A DNA stretch of 64,000 nucleotides from a virus (Duplodnaviria > Heunggongvirae > Uroviricota > Caudoviricetes), in the IMG/VR virus record IMGVR_UViG_2778260992_000001, one strand, 5' to 3'. A model generated the notes under the pieces. The model had not been told where the DNA came from. It was given only the letters and a program-made list of their open reading frames with translations, and did no database searches. A program made the position numbers and the translations under genes. Positions 24 to 35,873 of this stretch are shown here, in pieces. Numbering within the stretch: position 1 is the stretch's first letter; every line of letters starts with the position of its first letter.

Positions 24-413
24 ATGGCCTACACGTTGGATTTGGTCGGCCATACAAATGAAGAGCGGTGTATTGAGTTAGCCCTCGATATCGAAAAGTT
101 TTGCCACAAAACTGCCATTTCAAACTTTAACGCCATTGCTGGCTTACGCCCGGGAGTCGCTCTCTCAGAGCGAGATTACTTGCGATCACAACGAGCATCA
201 TTAGACCGTCTGTATGTTGCTCGTATTGATGCGTTGATGTGCGGGGAACTGACAAAAATTCACCTGCATCCGCAAAGGGGAGATCTGCAAACCTTCGTCG
301 TTTCCAACCGATATCGCACGGTTGAAGCAAGAGCCAGATCAGTGATGAGAATGCTAGATAACGCTGTAGAAAAGATAGAAAACCGGTTCTGTGGCCGAGT
401 GACCGTTCATTAG
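24..413 (+). CDS. hypothetical protein (frame is open to window start; may be 5' truncated)
   Basis: 129-aa ORF; no stop between position 3 and the ATG at 24; no recognisable motif. Confidence 0.4.
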   Translation: MAYTLDLVGHTNEERCIELALDIEKFCHKTAISNFNAIAGLRPGVALSERDYLRSQRASLDRLYVARIDALMCGELTKIHLHPQRGDLQTFVVSNRYRTVEARARSVMRMLDNAVEKIENRFCGRVTVH

Positions 414-474
414 AAATTGTTCGCCTCTTCTACATTGCGACAATAAAACTCTCAAAATGGGTTAAGGATAAAAA

Positions 475-894
475 ATGTTTAGTGAAATGTTGCTTGAAGA
501 TGAACTGGATCGGAAAACAACAGAGGCTTTGATTCGTGTGGCGGACGAACATTCTCGGTCGTTTATGAGCGATCGAGAGGCTCGTCTGGCTATTCGTGCC
601 ATATTCGAAACTGCGCAAGGGCTTGTTGGCGCACAAGTAGGTGAAGCCATTAACATCGCCATGTCTCAGTTCAGTGAAGGCAGTAAAAAGCCTCTGTTTC
701 CTATGCATTTGATGCTGGCTGGTGGCACGGTGCTTTATATCTCTGTTTGTCTGGATAGCAACCAAATCAATATTCTCAACACTGCGTCAGGTAAGTGGAA
801 AGATCCGATTGTCTGTGAAACCAGTGAAGAAACTTTGAAAAAAGCGGCTCAATTTGTACGTAGCGCACTACTTAAGGGCGCTAAGAAGTTGTAA
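475..894 (+). CDS. hypothetical protein
   Basis: 139-aa ORF with AAGGA-type RBS upstream; same strand as neighbours. Confidence 0.5.
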   Translation: MFSEMLLEDELDRKTTEALIRVADEHSRSFMSDREARLAIRAIFETAQGLVGAQVGEAINIAMSQFSEGSKKPLFPMHLMLAGGTVLYISVCLDSNQINILNTASGKWKDPIVCETSEETLKKAAQFVRSALLKGAKKL

Positions 895-28973: not shown

Positions 28974-30533
28974 CTAATCTCGTTTCAGAACTCCAAAATC
29001 GAATGCTCCATCAATAGGCAATACACCTTCTGCAAAGCCAGGTGTGGTGTCGATGATGTGTTTTCGCTCATAAGAGTGAGACAACAGGTATTTGTTGCTA
29101 ATGTCAATGAAATCAGTGATAAAACACACGTTTGCCTGATTTTTTTTGGCTCGTAAGCCACGACCGACACGCTGTCTCATTTCAACTTCTGCTTTCCCAC
29201 CACCAGCAAGAATGACCGCACCAACGCTTGGCACATCAACACCAACATCCAGAATAGTCGAGCCTATTAAAACATCTATTTCACCAGACGCTAAACTATT
29301 CAGCTTTGCTTGCCTTGTCGTCTGGTTAGATTCCCCATAGATGAAATCAACTTTAAGACCTGACTCCTTCATCATCTCCATCAGGATTTGCCCGTGGCGT
29401 TTAAGACGAACCAGAGTCATGCAGTTGAGTGAATGTTGCTTATAAAGCAATGCCTCGCGCACTATGGCCTCGTTACGTCCCAAATTATACACGATCCCCA
29501 ACTGATAAGCCTTTTGGTAGGCGGTGCTCATACCAACTCTAAAATTAAGGTGTTTGTTGGCAAGTTCCGCCTTGATTCTGACCTCGTCTGGCTTGTAAGC
29601 AACTTTATGATAAAGGAAGTACGGTTTTGCCAGAATGCCTCGATCAATCAGGTACTTTTCTGTGACTTTAATTTCAATTCGACCGGCCACAGCCATCAGA
29701 CGCATGTTGGCTTCTGTAGAATCCTTCATGAACGGCGTGGCCGTAAGCGCCAGACGATAGTCTGCGTTCACACATAATCTGGCAATGTCATAGAAATTAG
29801 AGCCTGAAGACTCATGCGCTTCTTCCAGAATAAGCAGAGACACACTTGAAAGGAAGCGTTTCACTAGCTCCCGACGTTTGAGGTGGTAGCTCTTTTTATC
29901 TGGTGTTGCATCGCGTGGTGGTTCTTCAAGGAAACTTGCCAGAGTTTGAACTGTAGCGACGTTGATATGTCGTGATACCTGGAACTCACCCGAGCCAATG
30001 ACTCCAACCTTTTGGTCTTTTAACCACGGTTCGCCATTTTCGGCGCGGTAGTCGATGGATCTCTGGAAGTTTTCGGCCATTTGAAACATCAGAACAGAGC
30101 GGGTTGTTAAAAATAATGTCATTCGACCGATACGTGCAGCTGCTTTGCAGGCAACGTTAGATTTCCCGCCACCAGTAGCGATCTGCGCAATCATCATTCC
30201 CTCTCGAACCAGTGTTTCCACAGTCTGATCCTGATATGCATAATCAGGATTGTATGGGAATGGGTTAACCGCCGGATTTGGTTTACCAAGCGCCGGGGCT
30301 TTGTCTTTGCGGATATGAACACATTTGATGCCCGCCTTGTTCAAGTTCGCCGCTACAGGCTTGGCAAAGCCAGCAGGGAACGAGTTTTTACTCCAGTTGA
30401 ACATCGTGCTTGTGCCCTTCCAGTCGCCAGTCTCGACTTCGTAGCTCAACATTTGCTGCACCAGTTGCTTTACCTTGTCATCTGCGCCAGAAATAAGCGC
30501 ATTTACTGCGTTAGATACAATCCGAACAGTCAT
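28974..30533 (-). CDS. superfamily-2 DExH-type helicase
   Basis: motif I ATGGGKS, motif II LILEEAHE, motif III LTATP, C-terminal RecA-like domain with QRVGRGLR (motif VI). Confidence 0.7.
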   Translation of the reverse strand: MTVRIVSNAVNALISGADDKVKQLVQQMLSYEVETGDWKGTSTMFNWSKNSFPAGFAKPVAANLNKAGIKCVHIRKDKAPALGKPNPAVNPFPYNPDYAYQDQTVETLVREGMMIAQIATGGGKSNVACKAAARIGRMTLFLTTRSVLMFQMAENFQRSIDYRAENGEPWLKDQKVGVIGSGEFQVSRHINVATVQTLASFLEEPPRDATPDKKSYHLKRRELVKRFLSSVSLLILEEAHESSGSNFYDIARLCVNADYRLALTATPFMKDSTEANMRLMAVAGRIEIKVTEKYLIDRGILAKPYFLYHKVAYKPDEVRIKAELANKHLNFRVGMSTAYQKAYQLGIVYNLGRNEAIVREALLYKQHSLNCMTLVRLKRHGQILMEMMKESGLKVDFIYGESNQTTRQAKLNSLASGEIDVLIGSTILDVGVDVPSVGAVILAGGGKAEVEMRQRVGRGLRAKKNQANVCFITDFIDISNKYLLSHSYERKHIIDTTPGFAEGVLPIDGAFDFGVLKRD

Positions 30534-30579
30534 AAACCTCTTTCCTTAGTGCCTTTTGTATGTTATTTGGCTATTATAA

Positions 30580-30598
30580 TAAGTAAGTGATTACTTAG
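30580..30598. promoter_or_regulatory. palindromic site, class 2
   Basis: taagtaagtgattacttag immediately upstream of first ParB-like gene. Confidence 0.45.
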
Positions 30599-30615
30599 TG
30601 GATTGTAGCAATAAA

Positions 30616-31296
30616 ATGGATGTAAAAATCACGATTTTGCAGGTTGATGTTGCCAACCTTCGCCCGAATACCTGGAACACCAATTCGGTTGGTGCGCAGA
30701 ATTTTGAAAAACTGAAAGGTTCTATCGAAAAATTGGGCTTTTTTAAGCCAATTTTGGCTCGTGAACTTGAAGATGGATTTTTTGAAATCCTCGGCGGTGA
30801 ACATCGCTGGCGTGCTGCTATTGAGCAAGGAATTTCAACGGTTCCGGTGCTTTCTGTGGGCAAAATTAGCGATGTCGTAGCTAAACAGATGTCACTGGTG
30901 GACAACGAGCGATACGGTGAAGACGACCAAATCGCATTGCAACGCTTCATTGAAGAAATTCAGTCAGAACTTGACTATCAACTGTTTGAAATCGCTCCGT
31001 ATGACGACGAAATCTCGATGGTTTTAGCAAAAGAGGCGGCAATCGACCTTGAAGCACTGGAGGCGTTGTCTCGTGGTAGTGATGAGCCTGTCGATACCGA
31101 CAAACGAGAGAAAACCGAACGTGTGGGTGCGGAACATCAGACCATGCGCTTCAAAGTAACTTTCGATGCGTCAGATCGTGTTGCAGAAACCATAAAAAAC
31201 ATCATCAAAGAGCAGGCTATTAACACCGGTAATGAAATGGAGAACGCTGGTGAGGCTCTGGTGTGGCTGGTCGACTACTACAAGGAGCGTATGTAA
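30616..31296 (+). CDS. ParB N-terminal-domain (ParB/Srx nuclease-like) protein 1
   Basis: LGGEHRWRAAIEQGISTVPV ParB-N signature; start ATG 30616 (alternative GTG 30598). Confidence 0.6.
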   Translation: MDVKITILQVDVANLRPNTWNTNSVGAQNFEKLKGSIEKLGFFKPILARELEDGFFEILGGEHRWRAAIEQGISTVPVLSVGKISDVVAKQMSLVDNERYGEDDQIALQRFIEEIQSELDYQLFEIAPYDDEISMVLAKEAAIDLEALEALSRGSDEPVDTDKREKTERVGAEHQTMRFKVTFDASDRVAETIKNIIKEQAINTGNEMENAGEALVWLVDYYKERM

Positions 31297-31964
31297 TGAC
31301 CAAAAAGTTTGAAATCGTATATCGCGACCCGGCAGATCTTATTCCCTATGAGATGAATGCCAAAAAGCATGATGAACAGCAGATCAGAGATCTGGCCGCA
31401 GCCATTAAAAAGCGCGGATTTGACCAGCCAATTACGGTCGATAAGAACGACGTAATTATTACTGGCCACGGCCGCCGTGAGGCTGCAATTTTTGCTGGAC
31501 TTGAGCGCGTACCGGTTATTGTTCGCGATGATCTCAGTGATGACGAGGTTCGTGCGAAGCGCCTTGAAGATAACCGACTTGCCAGCATTGATTACGATGC
31601 AATTAAGCTACAGAAAGAGCTTGAGTCGCTTGTTCTGGACGATATCGAGGTTTTCGGCTTTGAAGAGCGTGAGTTGAATGTTCTCGTTGGCAGTATGACA
31701 GAAGAAATGGACACCGACTCGCTAGTTATCGATCTTGGCGAAGAAACTAAACGACAGAAGGATGAACACACCGAGATCAGTCGTGAAGTTGCAGCGGAAG
31801 AAGTACGTGTTGTCGACGTATTGGGCTTTAAAACGCTCCCTGCTGGCTCTGCCATTGTTGTTGGTGATTTGCTTGCCCATATGGAAGAAATGACGGGAGA
31901 AAGCGGGGTAGACGCATTTGTGGCATATGCGGAGAAGATCTCTTCCGGGGAGATGGCTGCATGA
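31296..31964 (+). CDS. ParB N-terminal-domain (ParB/Srx nuclease-like) protein 2
   Basis: ITGHGRREAAIFAGLERVPVIV ParB-N signature; TAATG coupling, RBS aaggag. Confidence 0.6.
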   Translation: MTKKFEIVYRDPADLIPYEMNAKKHDEQQIRDLAAAIKKRGFDQPITVDKNDVIITGHGRREAAIFAGLERVPVIVRDDLSDDEVRAKRLEDNRLASIDYDAIKLQKELESLVLDDIEVFGFEERELNVLVGSMTEEMDTDSLVIDLGEETKRQKDEHTEISREVAAEEVRVVDVLGFKTLPAGSAIVVGDLLAHMEEMTGESGVDAFVAYAEKISSGEMAA

Positions 31965-32626
31965 GCAAATACATCATCAACGTATCGTTTCAGACACGCG
32001 TAAATAAAACCACGCGCACGTTGGAAATCGCTGAGTCGTTCGGGCTTGGCCTGGACGAAAAAGAGTGGACGCTTTACGACAATCTGGAGCTGGAAGTGAA
32101 GCAGGGCGATGTGGTGTACATCACCGGCCAATCCGGTTCCGGCAAATCCGTTGTGCTGCGCGAGTTGCAACGACAGATGAAGGATGAAGGGCTGTCTGTA
32201 GCCTCCATCGATGATTTTACCTTCGATAATGAGGTTAACGTCATCGATCAGTTGGGCAAAACGACCAGTGATGCGCTTGGGTTGTTATCTATGGCTGGTC
32301 TGAACGATGCATATCTGTTTGTTCGCAAGCCTTCTGAAATGTCAGACGGCCAGAAATATCGTCTCAAGATTGCCAAACTGATTGAGTCAGGCGCTAAAGT
32401 ATGGGCTGCTGACGAGTTCGGCGCTGTTCTCGACCGTGTAACCGCTCAGGTTGTGGCGTCTAACCTCCAGCGTGCCGCTCGAAAGGTTGGTGCGACGGTA
32501 ATGGTGGCGACGACTCACGAAGACCTGAAGAACGCGCTGCGCCCTGATATGCAGATCACCAAGCACTACAAAGAACGCGTGAAGGTGGAATATCACAATG
32601 GTAGTCATGATGAGGTCCATTCATGA
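31961..32626 (+). CDS. stand-alone ABC-type ATPase (nucleotide-binding-domain only)
   Basis: Walker A GQSGSGKS, ABC signature-like MSDGQKYRL, Walker B VWAADEF, H-loop TTHED; 221 aa, no membrane domain. Confidence 0.6.
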   Translation: MSKYIINVSFQTRVNKTTRTLEIAESFGLGLDEKEWTLYDNLELEVKQGDVVYITGQSGSGKSVVLRELQRQMKDEGLSVASIDDFTFDNEVNVIDQLGKTTSDALGLLSMAGLNDAYLFVRKPSEMSDGQKYRLKIAKLIESGAKVWAADEFGAVLDRVTAQVVASNLQRAARKVGATVMVATTHEDLKNALRPDMQITKHYKERVKVEYHNGSHDEVHS

Positions 32627-33513
32627 CGGACATCATCATTAAACGCTACCGCCCTGAAGAGTTTCCGCGTCATCTGGACTTTCTGGAGCGAATGACTGTT
32701 ACAAAGGGAACTGTAGAGGACTGGCACGCTCTTAAGTCGCTTCACTACAAAACAGACGGCAAACCTTTCGCGCCAACTTACTATCGCTGCGAACTTGATG
32801 ACCGTCTGGTGGGCGTCGTGGTTATGGCTTACCCGAAACTACTGTTGGCACCTCGCCACCGCATGTTTCCTAAGTTGAAACCAACCACTAATACCACCGT
32901 GGCTAACCAGTACTGGGGTCGGTACGTGAATAACAACTTTGCGGTGATCAGTCGCTCAGTTGTGGATACTCAGTATCGTGGCGTAGGCGTCTCTTATAGA
33001 ATGATTAACCTGGTTAGCAGGATGCATGACCGGCCAATCATTGAGATCCAGTCCTCGATGAGCAAATACAATCCCTTCGCCATGAAAGCAGGGTTTAAGT
33101 TCATCCGCCCTGAGCGACCGAAGAGCTATGAAAGTGCACTGCGTGTGTTCCAGCGCCATTTCCGCTCCGACCCGGGTGATAACGAGGCGATCGTCAAAGA
33201 GTTGTTCGCTATGAGCGAGTCTCGTCGTCGCCGTGCGCTGCGCGATTTGGTGGCGGACTACCATAAGAACAGTTCCCTGGCAAAAGCTGGGCGGAATCGT
33301 GGCACGACGATTCAGGACATTGCCGACAGTCTGGTGGACGAGGCCAGCATTGTGAAGCTGCTCAAGGACATTCACAACCTGAGCTTTACGTCTCCGTTGT
33401 ATGGTGTGTACCGAAACCCTGACTTTGGCCGTCGACTGCCTGACACGCTGCCACTGCTGGCATTCGACAAACAACCTTTGGATAAACCGTTAGAAATTGC
33501 TTTACCGGCATAA
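32623..33513 (+). CDS. hypothetical protein (possible GNAT acetyltransferase-like fold)
   Basis: ATGA-coupled; YRGVGVSYRMI resembles GNAT motif A; otherwise unassigned. Confidence 0.4.
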   Translation: MTDIIIKRYRPEEFPRHLDFLERMTVTKGTVEDWHALKSLHYKTDGKPFAPTYYRCELDDRLVGVVVMAYPKLLLAPRHRMFPKLKPTTNTTVANQYWGRYVNNNFAVISRSVVDTQYRGVGVSYRMINLVSRMHDRPIIEIQSSMSKYNPFAMKAGFKFIRPERPKSYESALRVFQRHFRSDPGDNEAIVKELFAMSESRRRRALRDLVADYHKNSSLAKAGRNRGTTIQDIADSLVDEASIVKLLKDIHNLSFTSPLYGVYRNPDFGRRLPDTLPLLAFDKQPLDKPLEIALPA

Positions 33514-33522
33514 GGATTTGCC

Positions 33523-33789
33523 ATGACGTTAACCGATAAACAAAAGGACATCATCAAAACGCTCAATCTCGGTTATGAGCGAGGTCATCTACTTGACCTG
33601 GACGAATTGCTTGAAGTTTTGCCGTACAAGACAACCAAGCAAAGTATCCAGTTCTCAATTCGCGCTCTGATAAAAAAGGGGCTGGTGGAGAAAGGGCATA
33701 CGCGCCAACGCAGTGACAATCGCTATCACCGCCGGACTCTTGGGTTAACCACTTTAGGTCGAGCCAAAGCGAAGTTACTGGTGATGTAA
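33523..33789 (+). CDS. hypothetical small DNA-binding (winged-helix-like) protein
   Basis: 88 aa, basic C-terminus. Confidence 0.4.
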   Translation: MTLTDKQKDIIKTLNLGYERGHLLDLDELLEVLPYKTTKQSIQFSIRALIKKGLVEKGHTRQRSDNRYHRRTLGLTTLGRAKAKLLVM

Positions 33790-33903
33790 TCGGTCTGGGA
33801 GCTTATTTAAAGACCTGCATCTGTATATATAAATAATAAGTAACTTATTAAATATATACGGAAGCAGGCTTCGTAAGACATGCCAGACCTAATTAAACAC
33901 CCC

Positions 33904-33947
33904 AGAAAACAAGTTGGTTAGCAGATGCAGTAAACAAGTTGTTTTAG
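33904..33947. promoter_or_regulatory. two class-1 palindromic sites in tandem upstream of small terminase gene
   Basis: gaaaacaagttggtt and taaacaagttgtttta. Confidence 0.5.
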
Positions 33948-33984
33948 AGCGCATGGACGCGCTCTGTGTGTTTTAGAGGGATCT

Positions 33985-34617
33985 ATGACGGTCGAAAAAG
34001 ACGAGGTAAAAACTCGCCTGACACCAGCGGAGTGGGCCGAAGCTGAAGCCAAATGGACGTCAGGCGAATATACACTCTCAAAGCTGGAGGAAGAGTACGG
34101 CATTCGTCGTGAAACACTCTCCAGACATTTCAAAAAGCGAGGATTAGAGAAAGGCGCGGACTCTGTTGGGAAGATGGTTCGTGAGTCTCTTAAATCTGAC
34201 GCAGAGCTTCGCGCTAAAGCCCGTGCGGAAAAGATAGAAGAACGTCGTACACGTTATGACGGCTGGGCGTATGCGTTGGGGCAGATGGTGATGGTCGAAG
34301 TCACTACGGCCAAACGTGAGGGTAAGCCTTTAGGGGCGATTGAGGATTCTCTCAAGAGCTTACAGAGAGCCAGTAATACCCTTGCAAAATGCTTTGAAGT
34401 TTCGTCCAAAGCATTGGGCATGGATCATGCGGAAAATGACGAGGAAGAAATTCCGAACCTGGTATTTGGTGAGCTTACGCCTTCCCAGGTGGCGAAATTA
34501 CGTCAGGAAGACGACGAGCCTGAAATCATCGATGACGAATTGCTTGAGACGTTGGAAGAAGAAGCTCTAAGCGAATTTGATGCGACAGATGATGGAAGTG
34601 AAGGGGAGGACGAATAA
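33985..34617 (+). CDS. putative terminase small subunit
   Basis: position immediately upstream of and coupled to large terminase; N-terminal HTH-like region, acidic C-terminus. Confidence 0.55.
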   Translation: MTVEKDEVKTRLTPAEWAEAEAKWTSGEYTLSKLEEEYGIRRETLSRHFKKRGLEKGADSVGKMVRESLKSDAELRAKARAEKIEERRTRYDGWAYALGQMVMVEVTTAKREGKPLGAIEDSLKSLQRASNTLAKCFEVSSKALGMDHAENDEEEIPNLVFGELTPSQVAKLRQEDDEPEIIDDELLETLEEEALSEFDATDDGSEGEDE

Positions 34618-35873
34618 TGGCAATCCCGTCCTCGCTCAGTCTTGTGCAACTGCATTCTGGACAGATGAAAGTCTTCCAGTCTCCGCATCGATTTAAAGTT
34701 GTTTGTGCTGGTCGACGCTGGGGAAAATCCCGGTTGTCGATCTCCACTATTATTCGTGCGGCGGCAAAGGAAAAAAAGCAAAGGGTCTGGTATGTCGCTC
34801 CTACATACCAGATGGCTCGCCAGATTTTGTGGGACGATCTACAGGAAGTTCTGCCTCGTAAGTGGGTTAGGAAAAAGAACGACACCACGATGACAATCGT
34901 GTTGAAGAACGGTTCGGAGATCGCCCTCAAAGGTGCTGATAAGCCTGACACTCTGCGCGGCGTAGCGTTGCATTTTGTAGTGCTTGATGAATTTCAGGAT
35001 ATGAAGGCTGACACCTGGTACAAGGTGTTACGACCTACTCTTTCATCGACACGCGGCGGTGCACTGATCATTGGTACGCCAAAAGGCTTCTCGGAATTTC
35101 ACAAACTGTGGACTATAGGCCAGAACGTAGAGCTGCAAAGAAAGGGACAGTGGAAGAGCTGGCAGTTTGTAACTGCCGATTCTCCGTTTGTACCTACGGC
35201 GGAAATTGAAGCTGCTAAGAACGATATGGACCCGAAATCGTTCGCTCAGGAGTACCTGGCGAGCTTTGAGAACATGTCCGGGCGCGTTTACTACCCGTTC
35301 GATCGTAACGTGCATGTAAAACCGCTTCAGTTCAACCCTCGGTTGCCTATATGGGTAGGGCAGGACTTCAACATTGACCCGATGTCTTCAGTAATTTTGC
35401 AACCTCAGCCAAATGGTGAGCTATGGGCAATTGATGAATTGGTGCTCTTTTCCTCTAACACGGCAGAGGTTTGTGATGAGCTTGAGAGACGCTTCTGGCG
35501 CTGGAAATCACAGATAACGGTATTTCCAGATCCGGCAGGTGCTTATCGCCAACATGCTCGCGGGGAGTCTGACGTCGACATATTCAAAGAGAAGGGATTC
35601 TTACGTGTCGATTATTCGAAAAAGCACCCGCCAATTGCGGATCGTGTTAATGCTGTTAACCGAATGCTGATGACCGCATCTGGAGATATCCGGCTGTATA
35701 TCGATCCGAAGTGCAAGCATTTGATTGATTCACTGGAAAAAGTCATCTACAAGCCTGGAACACGAGATATGGATAAGACAGGTGGCATTGAGCATAGTGC
35801 AGACGCATTGGGCTATCCAGTACATCGTAGGTATCCAGTCAAAAACCGTGTTATTCTTGGTGGTTCTCGATAG
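34617..35873 (+). CDS. terminase large subunit
   Basis: Walker A CAGRRWGKS, Walker B HFVVLDEF, followed by nuclease-like C-terminal half. Confidence 0.8.
   Translation: MAIPSSLSLVQLHSGQMKVFQSPHRFKVVCAGRRWGKSRLSISTIIRAAAKEKKQRVWYVAPTYQMARQILWDDLQEVLPRKWVRKKNDTTMTIVLKNGSEIALKGADKPDTLRGVALHFVVLDEFQDMKADTWYKVLRPTLSSTRGGALIIGTPKGFSEFHKLWTIGQNVELQRKGQWKSWQFVTADSPFVPTAEIEAAKNDMDPKSFAQEYLASFENMSGRVYYPFDRNVHVKPLQFNPRLPIWVGQDFNIDPMSSVILQPQPNGELWAIDELVLFSSNTAEVCDELERRFWRWKSQITVFPDPAGAYRQHARGESDVDIFKEKGFLRVDYSKKHPPIADRVNAVNRMLMTASGDIRLYIDPKCKHLIDSLEKVIYKPGTRDMDKTGGIEHSADALGYPVHRRYPVKNRVILGGSR

Follow-up and report, generated by a model that had tools for sequence, protein, structure and literature searches.

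Phage ParB homologues without a DNA-binding domain have been reported to activate a DNA thymine dioxygenase on dsDNA, and terminases are among the commonest neighbours of these ParB-activated pathways (PMC13229309). Fusions of ParB domains to methyltransferases and to acetyltransferases also exist (PMC12704722). Additionally, nicking and NTPase activity have been reported for the ParB/Srx domains of phage proteins (PMC5512222). Mom of phage Mu is a GNAT-fold DNA adenine methylcarbamoylase, and TmcA/NAT10 couples an ATPase to a GNAT domain and forms N4-acetylcytidine in RNA. In HK97-like phages, an HNH endonuclease has a role in cos cleavage. Finally, COG2401-type proteins (prototype MK0520) are uncharacterised; the name, already used by JGI and by the Cyrano annotators, implies no function, and no paper discussing COG2401 was found in the literature.

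Here, we analysed a 64,000-nt stretch of DNA (the window), which is an SSU5/Cyrano-type phage-plasmid (98.5% identity); the Cyrano genome encodes MetRS and tRNA genes. Positions 30616-33789 form a single, translationally coupled operon for ParB1, ParB2, an ABC ATPase, a GNAT-fold protein, and a small winged-helix (wHTH) protein. Every gene described in the initial annotation was found, and the translational coupling that it had proposed is read straight from the overlapping stop and start codons: TAATG at ParB1/ParB2 and ATGA at both ParB2/ABC and ABC/GNAT. The GNAT and wHTH genes are spaced by 9 nt, and a Shine-Dalgarno-like purine run is present at every junction. The cassette gene order is the same in 28 loci of gamma- and alpha-proteobacterial genomes, 26 of them drawn from a one-genome-per-species collection, at a protein identity of only 33–64%; the arrangement is thus not a matter of chance. 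No publication describing a ParB-ABC-GNAT cassette was found.

The cassette resembles the 5mYOX/ParB and ParB-methyltransferase systems in having short ParB proteins with an NTP-binding domain and no recognisable DNA-binding domain, placed beside or fused to an enzyme, in a phage genome and frequently near the terminase (PMC13229309; PMC12704722). In contrast, the partner here is an ABC ATPase plus GNAT rather than a dioxygenase or methylase, there are two paralogous ParB proteins, and DNA modification is only predicted. Mom shares no sequence similarity with the GNAT-fold protein of the window and, unlike the present unit, works without an ATPase or ParB partner. TmcA/NAT10 follows a common logic, in which an NTPase and a GNAT domain acylate a base in a structured nucleic acid; however, its ATPase is a RecD-like helicase domain rather than an ABC domain, its substrate is tRNA or rRNA, and homology to the unit is at the superfamily level only. 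The HNH accessory of HK97-like terminases is a positional analogue, since the cassette likewise fills the slot just ahead of terS/terL, where the genome map ends. The folds are unrelated, and ParB1 and ParB2 have no known nuclease activity, although nicking has been reported within the ParB/Srx family (PMC5512222).

ParB1 (30616..31296, plus strand, 226 aa; phrog_723) contains a ParB/Srx N-terminal NTP-binding domain (Pfam ParB_N, E 3e-13). Its start is ATG 30616 in the Cyrano annotation and GTG 30598 in that of SSU5. The CTPase domains of Spo0J, ParB, and Noc align with ParB1, whose GGEHRWRA corresponds to GERRxRA, and G60, G61, H63, R64, D96, N97, R99, Y100, and G101 are invariant across its family. 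ParB2 (31296..31964, plus strand, 222 aa; phrog_930) is a diverged paralogue, 33% identical to ParB1, with a second ParB_N domain (E 1.5e-8) that retains a GHGRR motif; the tandem ParB N-terminal proteins noted earlier are real. It starts at ATG 31296 and not at the upstream GTG 31263. The nearest relatives of ParB2 are the ParB domains of ParB-methyltransferase fusions; it matches the N-terminal region of the phrog_498 DNA methyltransferase (E 5e-32) and, in PADLOC, that of MTase_II.

Public records annotate both proteins as partition proteins, and with a ParB N-terminal domain in each and a low-copy plasmid prophage as the element, they might act as centromere-binding proteins in plasmid partition or copy control. 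We consider this extremely improbable. A domain search gave no HTH_ParB match in either protein, and ParA, with the deviant Walker A GGTKGGPGKST, begins near 63527, as annotated initially, and continues past the window end; it thus lies about 30 kb away with downstream genes of its own, and none is adjacent to the cassette. Moreover, other phages encode the ParB domain in a single polypeptide with ABC~GNAT, and the cassette occurs in the integrated prophage 315.4, in actinophages, and in phage LE4, which is lytic according to the title of PMC6078989. This distribution rules out a partition role for the family as a whole and agrees with the earlier view that this is not a standard partition cassette.

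The third gene (31961..32626, plus strand) encodes a soluble ABC-type ATPase of 221 aa with one nucleotide-binding domain (ABC_tran, E 6e-13), in which Walker A, the signature, Walker B, and the H-loop are all kept and which carries the family-specific N-terminal motif R-T-x-x-I-A-E-S-F-G-L-G. The fourth (32623..33513, plus strand) encodes a GNAT-fold acyltransferase-like protein of 296 aa, with a GNAT core at residues ~20-165 followed by a helical C-terminal domain. It shows the GNAT fold and motif A, which confirms the acetyltransferase fold previously regarded as possible. No sequence match was found among solved structures, and its fold-level likeness to Mom is no better than that to dozens of other GNATs. 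Strong purifying selection acts on all nucleotide-binding motifs of the unit and on its acyl-CoA loop motif, and the ABC ATPase is as conserved as TerL.

The two genes are a split version of the widespread, fused COG2401-type protein, whose C-terminal half corresponds to the GNAT-fold protein. The two halves are colinear with the window proteins, and 96% of a fused COG2401 query is covered by two adjacent pieces. Furthermore, both share the N-terminal AE[AS]FGLG, H-Y-[KR], R/Q-G-x-G, and E...M...NPF motifs. They differ in that the window has two overlapping genes, and relatives carry small variable genes between the halves. Among the 148 best remote homologues scanned, 87 have the family-specific ABC domain ahead of a GNAT-like domain. 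An N-terminal ParB-like domain is added in P0221, P0197, P0222, and P0228, giving ParB~ABC~GNAT fusions; AlphaFold2 models the triple fusion as a confident ABC~GNAT body (pLDDT above 90) with a ParB part that consists of the N-domain only, on a disordered linker. Similarly, P0204 (1260 aa, at least 24 contigs) fuses a family-B DNA polymerase to ABC and GNAT within a replication module. P0165 carries an intein within the ABC domain. In L117 and Enterococcus phage 9184, these parts are encoded by separate genes side by side. In some phages, the unit is therefore found beside the replicative DNA polymerase, or fused to it, instead of beside the terminase. Collectively, the ParB~ABC~GNAT and PolB~ABC~GNAT fusions indicate that the three parts act as one. 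The core of the cassette is thus a three-part enzyme unit of ParB-fold NTP-binding protein(s), a soluble ABC ATPase, and a GNAT-fold acyltransferase, present as four coupled genes here and as one or two polypeptides in other phages. The cassette genes co-occur rather than vary independently, in keeping with the module first proposed. In the largest clade of viral contigs, no ParB profile was matched near the unit, which indicates that ParB is not obligatory, and Streptococcus and Oenococcus phages have the ABC protein without a recognisable GNAT partner.

Most database records, including PHROGs and GenBank, name the ABC protein as the ATP-binding subunit of an ordinary transporter, and its sequence and fold are indeed closest to transporter nucleotide-binding domains. 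However, neither the operon nor any of the 28 syntenic loci contains a gene for a membrane permease or substrate-binding protein, and the domain is fused to GNAT, ParB, or PolB and not to transmembrane domains. Context and domain architecture leave this reading a negligible chance and rule it out; the ABC ATPase is no transporter subunit, and the "ABC transporter" label is routinely wrong.

Downstream of the cassette, a TerS-like protein (33985-34617, plus strand; phrog_867) and the terminase large subunit TerL (34617-35873, plus strand; Pfam Terminase_6N and Terminase_6C, PHROGs, and the Cyrano annotation) are followed by the portal gene of the same packaging module. The initial annotation placed the cassette upstream of the terminase, which is borne out but was an understatement: a TerL of this type is located within 500 nt of the unit at 51 of 80 viral loci, usually in the same operon and often only 8 nt apart, these loci not being independent, as most belong to one broad clade at 55-60% identity. 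Terminase_6N also accounts for 34 of the 79 genes immediately upstream of the unit. Pfam NAT10_TcmA_helicase matches in these neighbourhoods are cross-hits of TerL ATPase domains. In Gordonia phage Sisko, Leptospira phage LE4, Streptococcus prophage 315.4, and the L119 and SSU5 types, ParB followed by ABC~GNAT immediately precedes the terminase genes; in phage Jace, it stands five genes ahead of TerS. At or near the terminase, the unit is found in phages of Proteobacteria, Actinobacteria, Firmicutes, and Spirochaetes, lytic ones included, and this distribution rules out roles in plasmid partition and membrane transport. Far from being limited to the SSU5/Cyrano-type element, the cassette is ancient and widespread.

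The main rival to a DNA-marking role is a terminase accessory without DNA modification, which would add a third component to the packaging machinery, in the slot that HNH endonucleases take in HK97-like cos phages. In this reading, the pac/cos region would be nicked, marked, or loaded by the ParB/Srx domains, and concatemer DNA or the terminase would be held or remodelled by the ABC dimer. The GNAT domain would have TerS, TerL, portal, or a host nucleoid protein as its acetylation target, or would be structural or acyl-CoA-sensing only. The terminase adjacency, the use of the pre-terminase slot in at least five unrelated lineages of cultured phages, the TerL-like conservation of the ABC protein, and the presence of the unit in every lineage member all speak for this role, as do the nicking and NTPase activities of phage ParB/Srx domains (PMC5512222) and a conserved AT-rich palindrome before terS. 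Against it, the unit also occurs within purely replicative modules well away from any terminase, either PolB-fused, beside DnaB and DHH, or beside a primase, and neither an ABC ATPase nor a GNAT is known from any terminase system. The cassette is not a described packaging component, in line with the earlier remark that it does not fit a standard packaging cassette. We regard such an accessory as possible, though somewhat less likely than a DNA mark.

The palindrome lies in the structured 195-nt gap between the cassette and terS (33790..33984). It spans 55 nt and is centred near 33842, with arms at 33814-33830 and 33852-33868 and inner arms at 33826-33841 and 33843-33858, and two direct-repeat pairs follow (33903/33928 and 33940/33969). 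The deposited GenBank genomes of SSU5 and Cyrano both open within the palindrome, 62 nt past the wHTH stop (~33851), and alpha-proteobacterial relatives have AT-rich palindromes with AAGTAA/TTACTT-like half sites at the same place. The gap is a candidate pac/cos site, terminator, or late operator. At the other end of the operon, the divergent intergenic region (30534..30615) contains the perfect palindromic motif AAGTAAGTGATTACTT at 30581-30596, a candidate operator or phage-specific promoter element; its motif family has 9 distinct sites in the window versus about 2 in shuffles, and no sigma-70-like promoter was found in this region.

Two genes that had been counted in the module are restricted to the SSU5-type lineage. 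The last gene of the operon (33523..33789, plus strand) encodes the putative wHTH DNA-binding protein (88 aa; phrog_900, of unknown function), found at the same position in 18 of 29 related loci. Its HTH matches are faint (LexA_DNA_bind, E 0.07; Sta1/Lrs14, E 0.003; CARF-associated wHTH), so a DNA-binding fold is likely but unproven. This protein and the palindrome-rich gap are probably lineage-specific regulator or recognition elements. The divergently transcribed SF2 helicase (28974..30533, minus strand; Pfam ResIII, DEAD, Helicase_C; phrog_16 DNA helicase, E 2e-93) is UvsW/XPB/Rad25-like, with XPBII, Rad25, and T4 UvsW as PDB sequence matches, and is one of the recombination/replication genes. 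It adjoins the cassette in all 28 SSU5-type loci with an available upstream flank (L111 is truncated there) and is not beside the cassette in Sisko, LE4, 315.4, Jace, or the L119 type. Nonlabens phage P12024S has a helicase close to the unit, but a non-orthologous one. The SF2 helicase thus probably does not belong to the core of the cassette.

Genes for further group-transfer enzymes accompany the unit in several lineages. A Formyl_trans_N gene follows the unit in Sisko and in the Mu-like phage phiE255, where both are placed after the tail-fibre genes, the position of Mom in Mu. Jace has an aspartate decarboxylase gene after the unit, Oenococcus and Streptococcus phages have an adenine methylase or ParB-methylase gene ahead of the ABC gene, and the 315.4 cassette includes an ASCH-domain gene; the SSU5-type operon has no extra modification enzymes alongside. 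The recurring formyltransferase, aspartate decarboxylase, and methylase neighbours would be unexpected for a structural packaging factor. A further rival is a host-takeover or anti-defence effector, whose ATPase-GNAT pair would act on a target other than DNA, in the manner of GNAT toxins and of polyamine or antibiotic acetyltransferases. It would acetylate a small molecule, an aminoacyl-tRNA, or a protein of the host, serving late phage development or blocking an immune pathway, and ParB would have a regulatory role only. The formyltransferases might just as well reflect chemistry at amino groups of tRNA or protein. The ribosome-acting soluble proteins ABCE1 and ABC-F are among the many ABC proteins whose nucleotide-binding domains have a fold similar to that of the ABC protein here, and the MetRS and tRNA genes of Cyrano would suit such a role. 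Nevertheless, the ParB and DNA polymerase fusions and the terminase adjacency all indicate DNA, PADLOC matched no known defence system, and anti-defence genes are normally variable and early, whereas the unit is invariant in its lineage and lies among late genes. An effector of this kind is unlikely.

The initial suggestion of a novel nucleic-acid-targeting or packaging-accessory system is partly supported; we tentatively favour its first half and give the second, as above, less weight. The unit may be an acyltransferase, driven by ATP and assisted by ParB, that places a mark on phage DNA ahead of packaging, a reading predicted, with less than even confidence, from sequence and gene context. 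A protective DNA mark is usually an accessory trait, and the presence of the unit throughout the lineage and its TerL-like conservation are explained no less well by a core packaging role than by a DNA mark. As a marking enzyme, the unit would act on phage DNA that has just been replicated, as replication gives way to packaging. The ParB proteins would serve as NTP-gated clamps or activators that keep the enzyme on dsDNA, ATP-driven dimerisation of the ABC domain would engage or open the substrate, and the GNAT domain would move an acyl group from acyl-CoA to an amino group, most likely of a DNA base and less likely of a DNA-bound protein. The marked DNA would then be the product packaged by the neighbouring terminase, and the formyltransferase, aspartate decarboxylase, adenine methylase, and ASCH neighbours of the family are pointers to a chemical modification pathway.

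The flagged stretch (28974-33789) aligns over all 4816 bases with Escherichia phage Cyrano at 98.5% identity, and further nucleotide matches lie in other E. coli phage-plasmids, Salmonella phage SSU5 (83%) and Klebsiella relatives (80%). These matches identify the window as a segment of an SSU5-type phage-plasmid. In its annotated relatives, replication and recombination are served by genes of their own (DnaB-like helicase, primase, Pol III alpha, RecA, UvsY, gp32-like SSB and SbcCD), and nucleotide metabolism genes (RNR, ThyX and DHFR), a Dam methylase, toxin-antitoxin pairs and ParA are also present. The Cyrano record (loci L123 and L124) adds genes that fall outside or partly inside the window: methionyl-tRNA synthetase and three tRNAs; a KacT-type GNAT toxin paired with an antitoxin; HicAB; a RelE/ParE toxin immediately behind ParA; CobT/cobalamin synthase genes; and a protein with an ASCH domain.

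Every gene listed for this stretch in the initial annotation was recovered. The SF2 helicase (28974-30533, minus strand) matches Pfam ResIII, DEAD and Helicase_C, and its nearest solved structures are XPB/Rad25 and T4 UvsW. On the plus strand follow ParB1 (30616-31296; Pfam ParB_N), for which the SSU5 annotators chose an alternative GTG start at 30598, and ParB2 (31296-31964; Pfam ParB_N), whose first-listed GTG at 31263 represents an upstream extension. Next come an ABC ATPase with a nucleotide-binding domain (31961-32626), a 296-aa GNAT-fold protein (32623-33513) and an 88-aa wHTH protein (33523-33789). After a 195-nt gap, genes for a TerS-like protein (phrog_867), TerL (Terminase_6N/6C) and the portal complete the series. 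The proposed translational coupling is borne out by the junctions, which read TAATG, ATGA and ATGA, with a 9-nt gap at the fourth; a purine-rich stretch lies ahead of each. Just past DHFR, Cyrano also encodes a second small "ABC transporter ATP-binding protein" (CYRAN_75, 214 aa), for which the offset predicts window positions 93-737; ORFs 24-413 and 475-894 stand there in place of a counterpart. No paralogue of the cassette ABC protein was found anywhere in the window by tblastn.

Conservation within the SSU5-type lineage was assessed by tblastn mapping of three metagenomic or genomic contexts at ~45% identity and 26 loci from a one-genome-per-species collection. All 28 loci that span the whole region retain the order helicase (minus strand), ParB1, ParB2, ABC, GNAT, usually wHTH, TerS, TerL and portal, while the ABC-GNAT gap varies from 0 to 900 nt and sometimes holds small unrelated genes. 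Their hosts are Gamma- and Alphaproteobacteria, and the cultured members include Pseudomonas phage nickie, Rhizobium phage RHEph10 and Stenotrophomonas phage ANB28. Identities to the window proteins are 52-64% for ABC, 54-65% for TerL, 45-57% for the portal, 37-49% for GNAT, 39-58% for the helicase, 34-46% for ParB1, 32-48% for ParB2 and 24-35% for TerS. The ABC values are close to those of TerL, and thus the ABC ATPase is as constrained as the terminase. This TerL-like conservation, together with the universal presence of the cassette in the lineage, speaks for the main rival explanation, in which the cassette assists the terminase and leaves the DNA unmodified; we regard that role as possible but rather unlikely. 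Near the helicase, the relatives also encode a PF04447 dATP/dGTP pyrophosphohydrolase (L005, which with L006 represents a marine relative) and dCMP deaminases (L003 and L004), the latter locus with an anaerobic ribonucleotide reductase; these nucleotide-pool genes in L003-L006 hint at altered nucleotide metabolism in some members.

Constant order inside one lineage could be whole-genome synteny, and the search was therefore extended outside it. Scanned with the SSU5-type alignment, IMG/VR at first yielded near-identical loci only. We compared 1.84 billion representative proteins with a profile of the GNAT-like family, which gave 891 matches at E < 1e-3. The full-length remote homologues are mostly 430-560 aa long with the GNAT-like part at the C-terminus, and an ABC domain precedes this part in 87 of the 148 best matches scanned with Pfam and a family-specific ABC profile. 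Therefore, the two window genes correspond to a split COG2401-type protein, a name that stands for "ABC ATPase fused to predicted acetyltransferase". The ABC and GNAT halves are colinear and share the family-specific motifs, and a fused query covers two adjacent E. coli phage-plasmid genes to 96%; in the window, each half has its own gene, and the two genes overlap.

Beyond this ABC~GNAT form (the tilde marks domains fused in one polypeptide), four homologues of 666-699 aa (P0221, P0197, P0222 and P0228) add an N-terminal ParB-like domain. The AlphaFold2 model of such a triple fusion shows a confident ABC~GNAT body with pLDDT above 90 and the ParB N-domain on a disordered linker. Furthermore, a 1260-aa protein (P0204; loci L113-L115), found on at least 24 metagenomic contigs, joins a family-B DNA polymerase to ABC and GNAT, and is surrounded by a phage replication module with RecA, Prim-Pol, 5'-3' exonuclease, RNA ligase and an SbcC-like ATPase. 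In a sister phage (L117), PolB, a 224-aa gene and ABC~GNAT are separate neighbours; similarly, in Enterococcus phage 9184, PolB and ABC are accompanied by a GNAT-like gene that wrongly bears the label "DNA polymerase". Collectively, these fusions show that ParB, ABC and GNAT function as a single unit whose target is connected with DNA; protein, tRNA or a small molecule as the target appears improbable. ParB proteins that lack a recognisable DNA-binding domain are coupled to or fused with an ABC~GNAT partner, and we provisionally rated the cassette as one of the ParB-assisted, DNA-directed enzymes. The genes do not vary independently, as seen in the 28 syntenic loci and in the fusions beyond the lineage. 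The helicase, which had been counted as part of the module, is probably not a core part of it, being a neighbour limited to the SSU5-type lineage; Nonlabens phage P12024S also has a helicase close to its ABC~GNAT unit, but that helicase and the one of the window are not orthologues. The wHTH protein is likewise a neighbour specific to this lineage. Among the homologues, P0165 carries an intein with a LAGLIDADG homing endonuclease inside its ABC domain. Three others of 880-908 aa (P0193, P0201 and P0236; locus L116) have an extra N-terminal P-loop domain with a weak match to the Pox_A32 packaging ATPase (E 0.017) and, between this domain and ABC~GNAT, a segment that by eye resembles PD-(D/E)xK.

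The GNAT-like protein gives a weak Pfam match only (E = 0.037) and no match to PDB sequences. Its alignment of 38 homologues (A1) describes a strongly constrained family with 37 invariant columns. Motif A of the acetyltransferase fold (Q/R-x-x-G-x-G/A) is present as R119-[GSA]-x-G122-x-[SGA], in which R119 and G122 are invariant in the 38 sequences; homologues from cultured phages have the form QGxG[ILV][GA]. AlphaFold2 on the same alignment yielded a model with pLDDT 86.7 and pTM 0.78. Based on this model and motif A, the GNAT alpha/beta fold, originally proposed as a possible acetyltransferase, is confirmed, and catalysis is putative. No homology to Mom beyond the generic GNAT fold was found. 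A link to cytidine acetylation through Pfam NAT10_TcmA_helicase matches in neighbouring genes was rejected, as these matches are cross-hits of TerL ATPase domains; the Terminase_6N-type domains of L171, L186 and L189 give such cross-hits down to E 5e-7.

The nucleotide-binding domain of the ABC ATPase contains Walker A, signature, Walker B and H-loop. A transmembrane permease partner was found neither in the operon nor in the syntenic loci. Because the permease is absent throughout and the fusion partners (GNAT, ParB and PolB) are soluble DNA-related domains, a role as transporter subunit was rejected. PADLOC matched no gene set of a catalogued defence or anti-defence system, and the reading of the cassette as a catalogued defence system was rejected on this result. 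The matches were generic and confined to single domains, namely PbeA for the helicase, mad3/mad8 for ABC and the N-terminal region of MTase_II for ParB, with nothing for the GNAT-like protein.

ParB1 and ParB2 both have the NTP-binding (CTPase-fold) N-terminal domain of ParB, and their GxxRxxA-type motifs (GGEHRWRA in ParB1 and GHGRREA in ParB2) are conserved across their families. They are paralogues with 33% identity over 116 residues. Neither protein matches HTH_ParB or any other HTH at E <= 0.1, and in the triple-fusion homologue the ParB part is modelled as the N-domain only. A homologue search with ParB1 returned only proteins at least 85% identical. ParA lies elsewhere, as had been stated; its gene starts near 63527, encodes the deviant Walker A GGTKGGPGKST and runs past the window end. 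With the central HTH and a cognate adjacent ParA both missing (ParA is ~30 kb distant), the ParABS partition reading was rejected. Lytic and integrated phages also have the cassette, which excludes partition for the family as a whole, and the earlier view that this is not a partition cassette holds.

To place the unit in its genomic contexts, IMG/VR was rescanned with the fused ABC~GNAT family as the query, which gave 80 loci (L125-L204). The immediate upstream gene encodes a Terminase_6N protein in 34 of 79, and a TerL found with the SSU5-type profile lies 0-500 nt away in 51 of 80, a count that overstates independence because many of these loci fall in one broad clade. Typically the late operon closes with TerS-TerL-ABC~GNAT, including an 8-nt gap, and heterogeneous genes follow. 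In 25 of the 80 loci the contig stops no more than 100 nt from the ABC~GNAT gene, in 12 of them exactly at the stop codon; these ends were rejected as true genome termini, as they probably reflect mostly provirus trimming at gene boundaries and the last position of the gene in the late operon.

The terminase link also occurs in clearly separate lineages. The L119 type has ParB~ABC~GNAT, a small gene, TerL, a PF04860 portal and Mu-F. Gordonia phage Sisko encodes a ParB-like protein (gp1), ABC~GNAT (gp2), a formyltransferase-fold protein (gp3) and terminase (gp4), and Leptospira phage LE4 a ParB-like protein (gp14) and ABC~GNAT (gp15) followed by three small genes, TerL and portal. Streptococcus prophage 315.4 presents ParB_N, ABC, a hypothetical gene, ASCH, another hypothetical gene, TerL and portal; phage Jace has ParB, ABC~GNAT and aspartate decarboxylase, with TerS five genes on; and in Oenococcus phage Vinitor-27 an adenine methylase and ABC lie near the end of the deposited circular record. 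When the neighbourhood check proposed at the outset was run, ABC~GNAT, in several lineages together with ParB, was seen to recur in other phages, adjoining terminase or replication genes. Operon coupling to TerL is a further point for the terminase accessory explanation, whereas the purely replicative contexts elsewhere weigh against it: SPbeta-like phages have DnaB-DHH-ABC~GNAT, and Nonlabens phage P12024S has primase-ABC~GNAT. The enzymes encoded next to the unit count against it as well. These group-transfer neighbours comprise a formyltransferase in two unrelated lineages, aspartate decarboxylase and methylases. In Mu-like phage phiE255, ABC~GNAT and a formyltransferase follow the tail-fibre genes, which is the slot of mom in Mu.

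Several candidate cis elements accompany the cassette. In the gap between wHTH and terS (33790-33984), an AT-rich palindrome of 55 nt has its centre near 33842 and is accompanied by two direct-repeat pairs (CAGAAAACAAGTTGGTT / CAGTAAACAAGTTGTTT and two copies of TGTTTTAGAG). The GenBank records of SSU5 and Cyrano were both opened inside this palindrome, and distant relatives in GC-rich alphaproteobacteria have AT-rich palindromes with AAGTAA/TTACTT-like half sites in the same place. This region is a candidate pac/cos site or late operator. In addition, the helicase-ParB1 gap contains a perfect AAGTAAGTGATTACTT (site 30581). Half sites AAGTAA/TTACTT spaced 0-8 nt apart occur at nine distinct window sites (4114, 4797, 9767, 30581, 37379, 39686, 40110, 49375 and 56294, the last being AGGTAAGTACTTACTT) versus ~2 in shuffled sequence, the majority just upstream of ORF starts. 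The motif may be a phage-specific operator or promoter element. Promoter and terminator scans across the region stayed at background level.

With its ParB-fold partner, an ATPase welded to GNAT, adjacency to polymerase and terminase, and group-transfer neighbours, the cassette is tentatively read as an NTP-driven acyltransferase that acts on phage DNA between replication and packaging, a role we consider plausible though still short of probable. That it constitutes a so far unrecognised DNA-acylation machine across many phage groups, placing an acyl mark on bases, is more doubtful. In such a machine, the ParB-fold NTP switch and the ABC ATPase would direct GNAT onto phage dsDNA, at the replication fork or else shortly ahead of packaging. 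GNAT would then put an acyl mark on the DNA, for example N4-acetylcytosine or N6-acyl-adenine, and in lineages with extra genes the mark might be elaborated further by formyltransferase or with amino-acid-derived groups. For the acyltransferase reading, three precedents, namely ParB with thymine dioxygenase, ParB fusions and Mom/TmcA, lend support to each step. Mom, which modifies DNA, has the GNAT fold, and in TmcA an ATPase works together with GNAT to acetylate cytidine. Phage ParB homologues that lack a DNA-binding domain stimulate a thymine dioxygenase, and do so specifically on dsDNA; the commonest neighbours of thymine dioxygenase pathways include ParBs (27%) and terminases (19%) (PMC13229309). 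Moreover, ParB-methyltransferase fusions are over-represented in prophages, and one ParB-acetyltransferase fusion binds GTP (PMC12704722).

The domain superfamilies and the COG name of the fused protein are already known; literature searches found no paper on COG2401, the ParB-ABC-GNAT cassette, its terminase or polymerase linkage, or any function. The unit is conserved like terminase, systematically misannotated as a transporter and without an assigned function, and it ranges over phages of Proteobacteria, Actinobacteria, Firmicutes, Spirochaetes and Bacteroidota as well as many metagenomic viruses. SSU5 on Salmonella, Cyrano and related E. coli phage-plasmids, and the Gordonia and Streptococcus phages offer tractable systems. 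If DNA acylation is true, "ABC transporter" annotations would conceal a novel enzymatic class of DNA base modification in phages of at least four bacterial phyla. A DNA-modifying cassette would bring new chemistry (ABC ATPase-driven, ParB-guided acylation) to phage epigenetics and anti-restriction, and would be a second case in which ParB-fold proteins serve enzymes that modify DNA. As a terminase cofactor, the unit would instead add a new and widespread part to the machinery that packages DNA. The finding bears on SSU5-like phage-plasmids and their biology, pHCM2/pMT1-type elements and resistance gene carriers among them.
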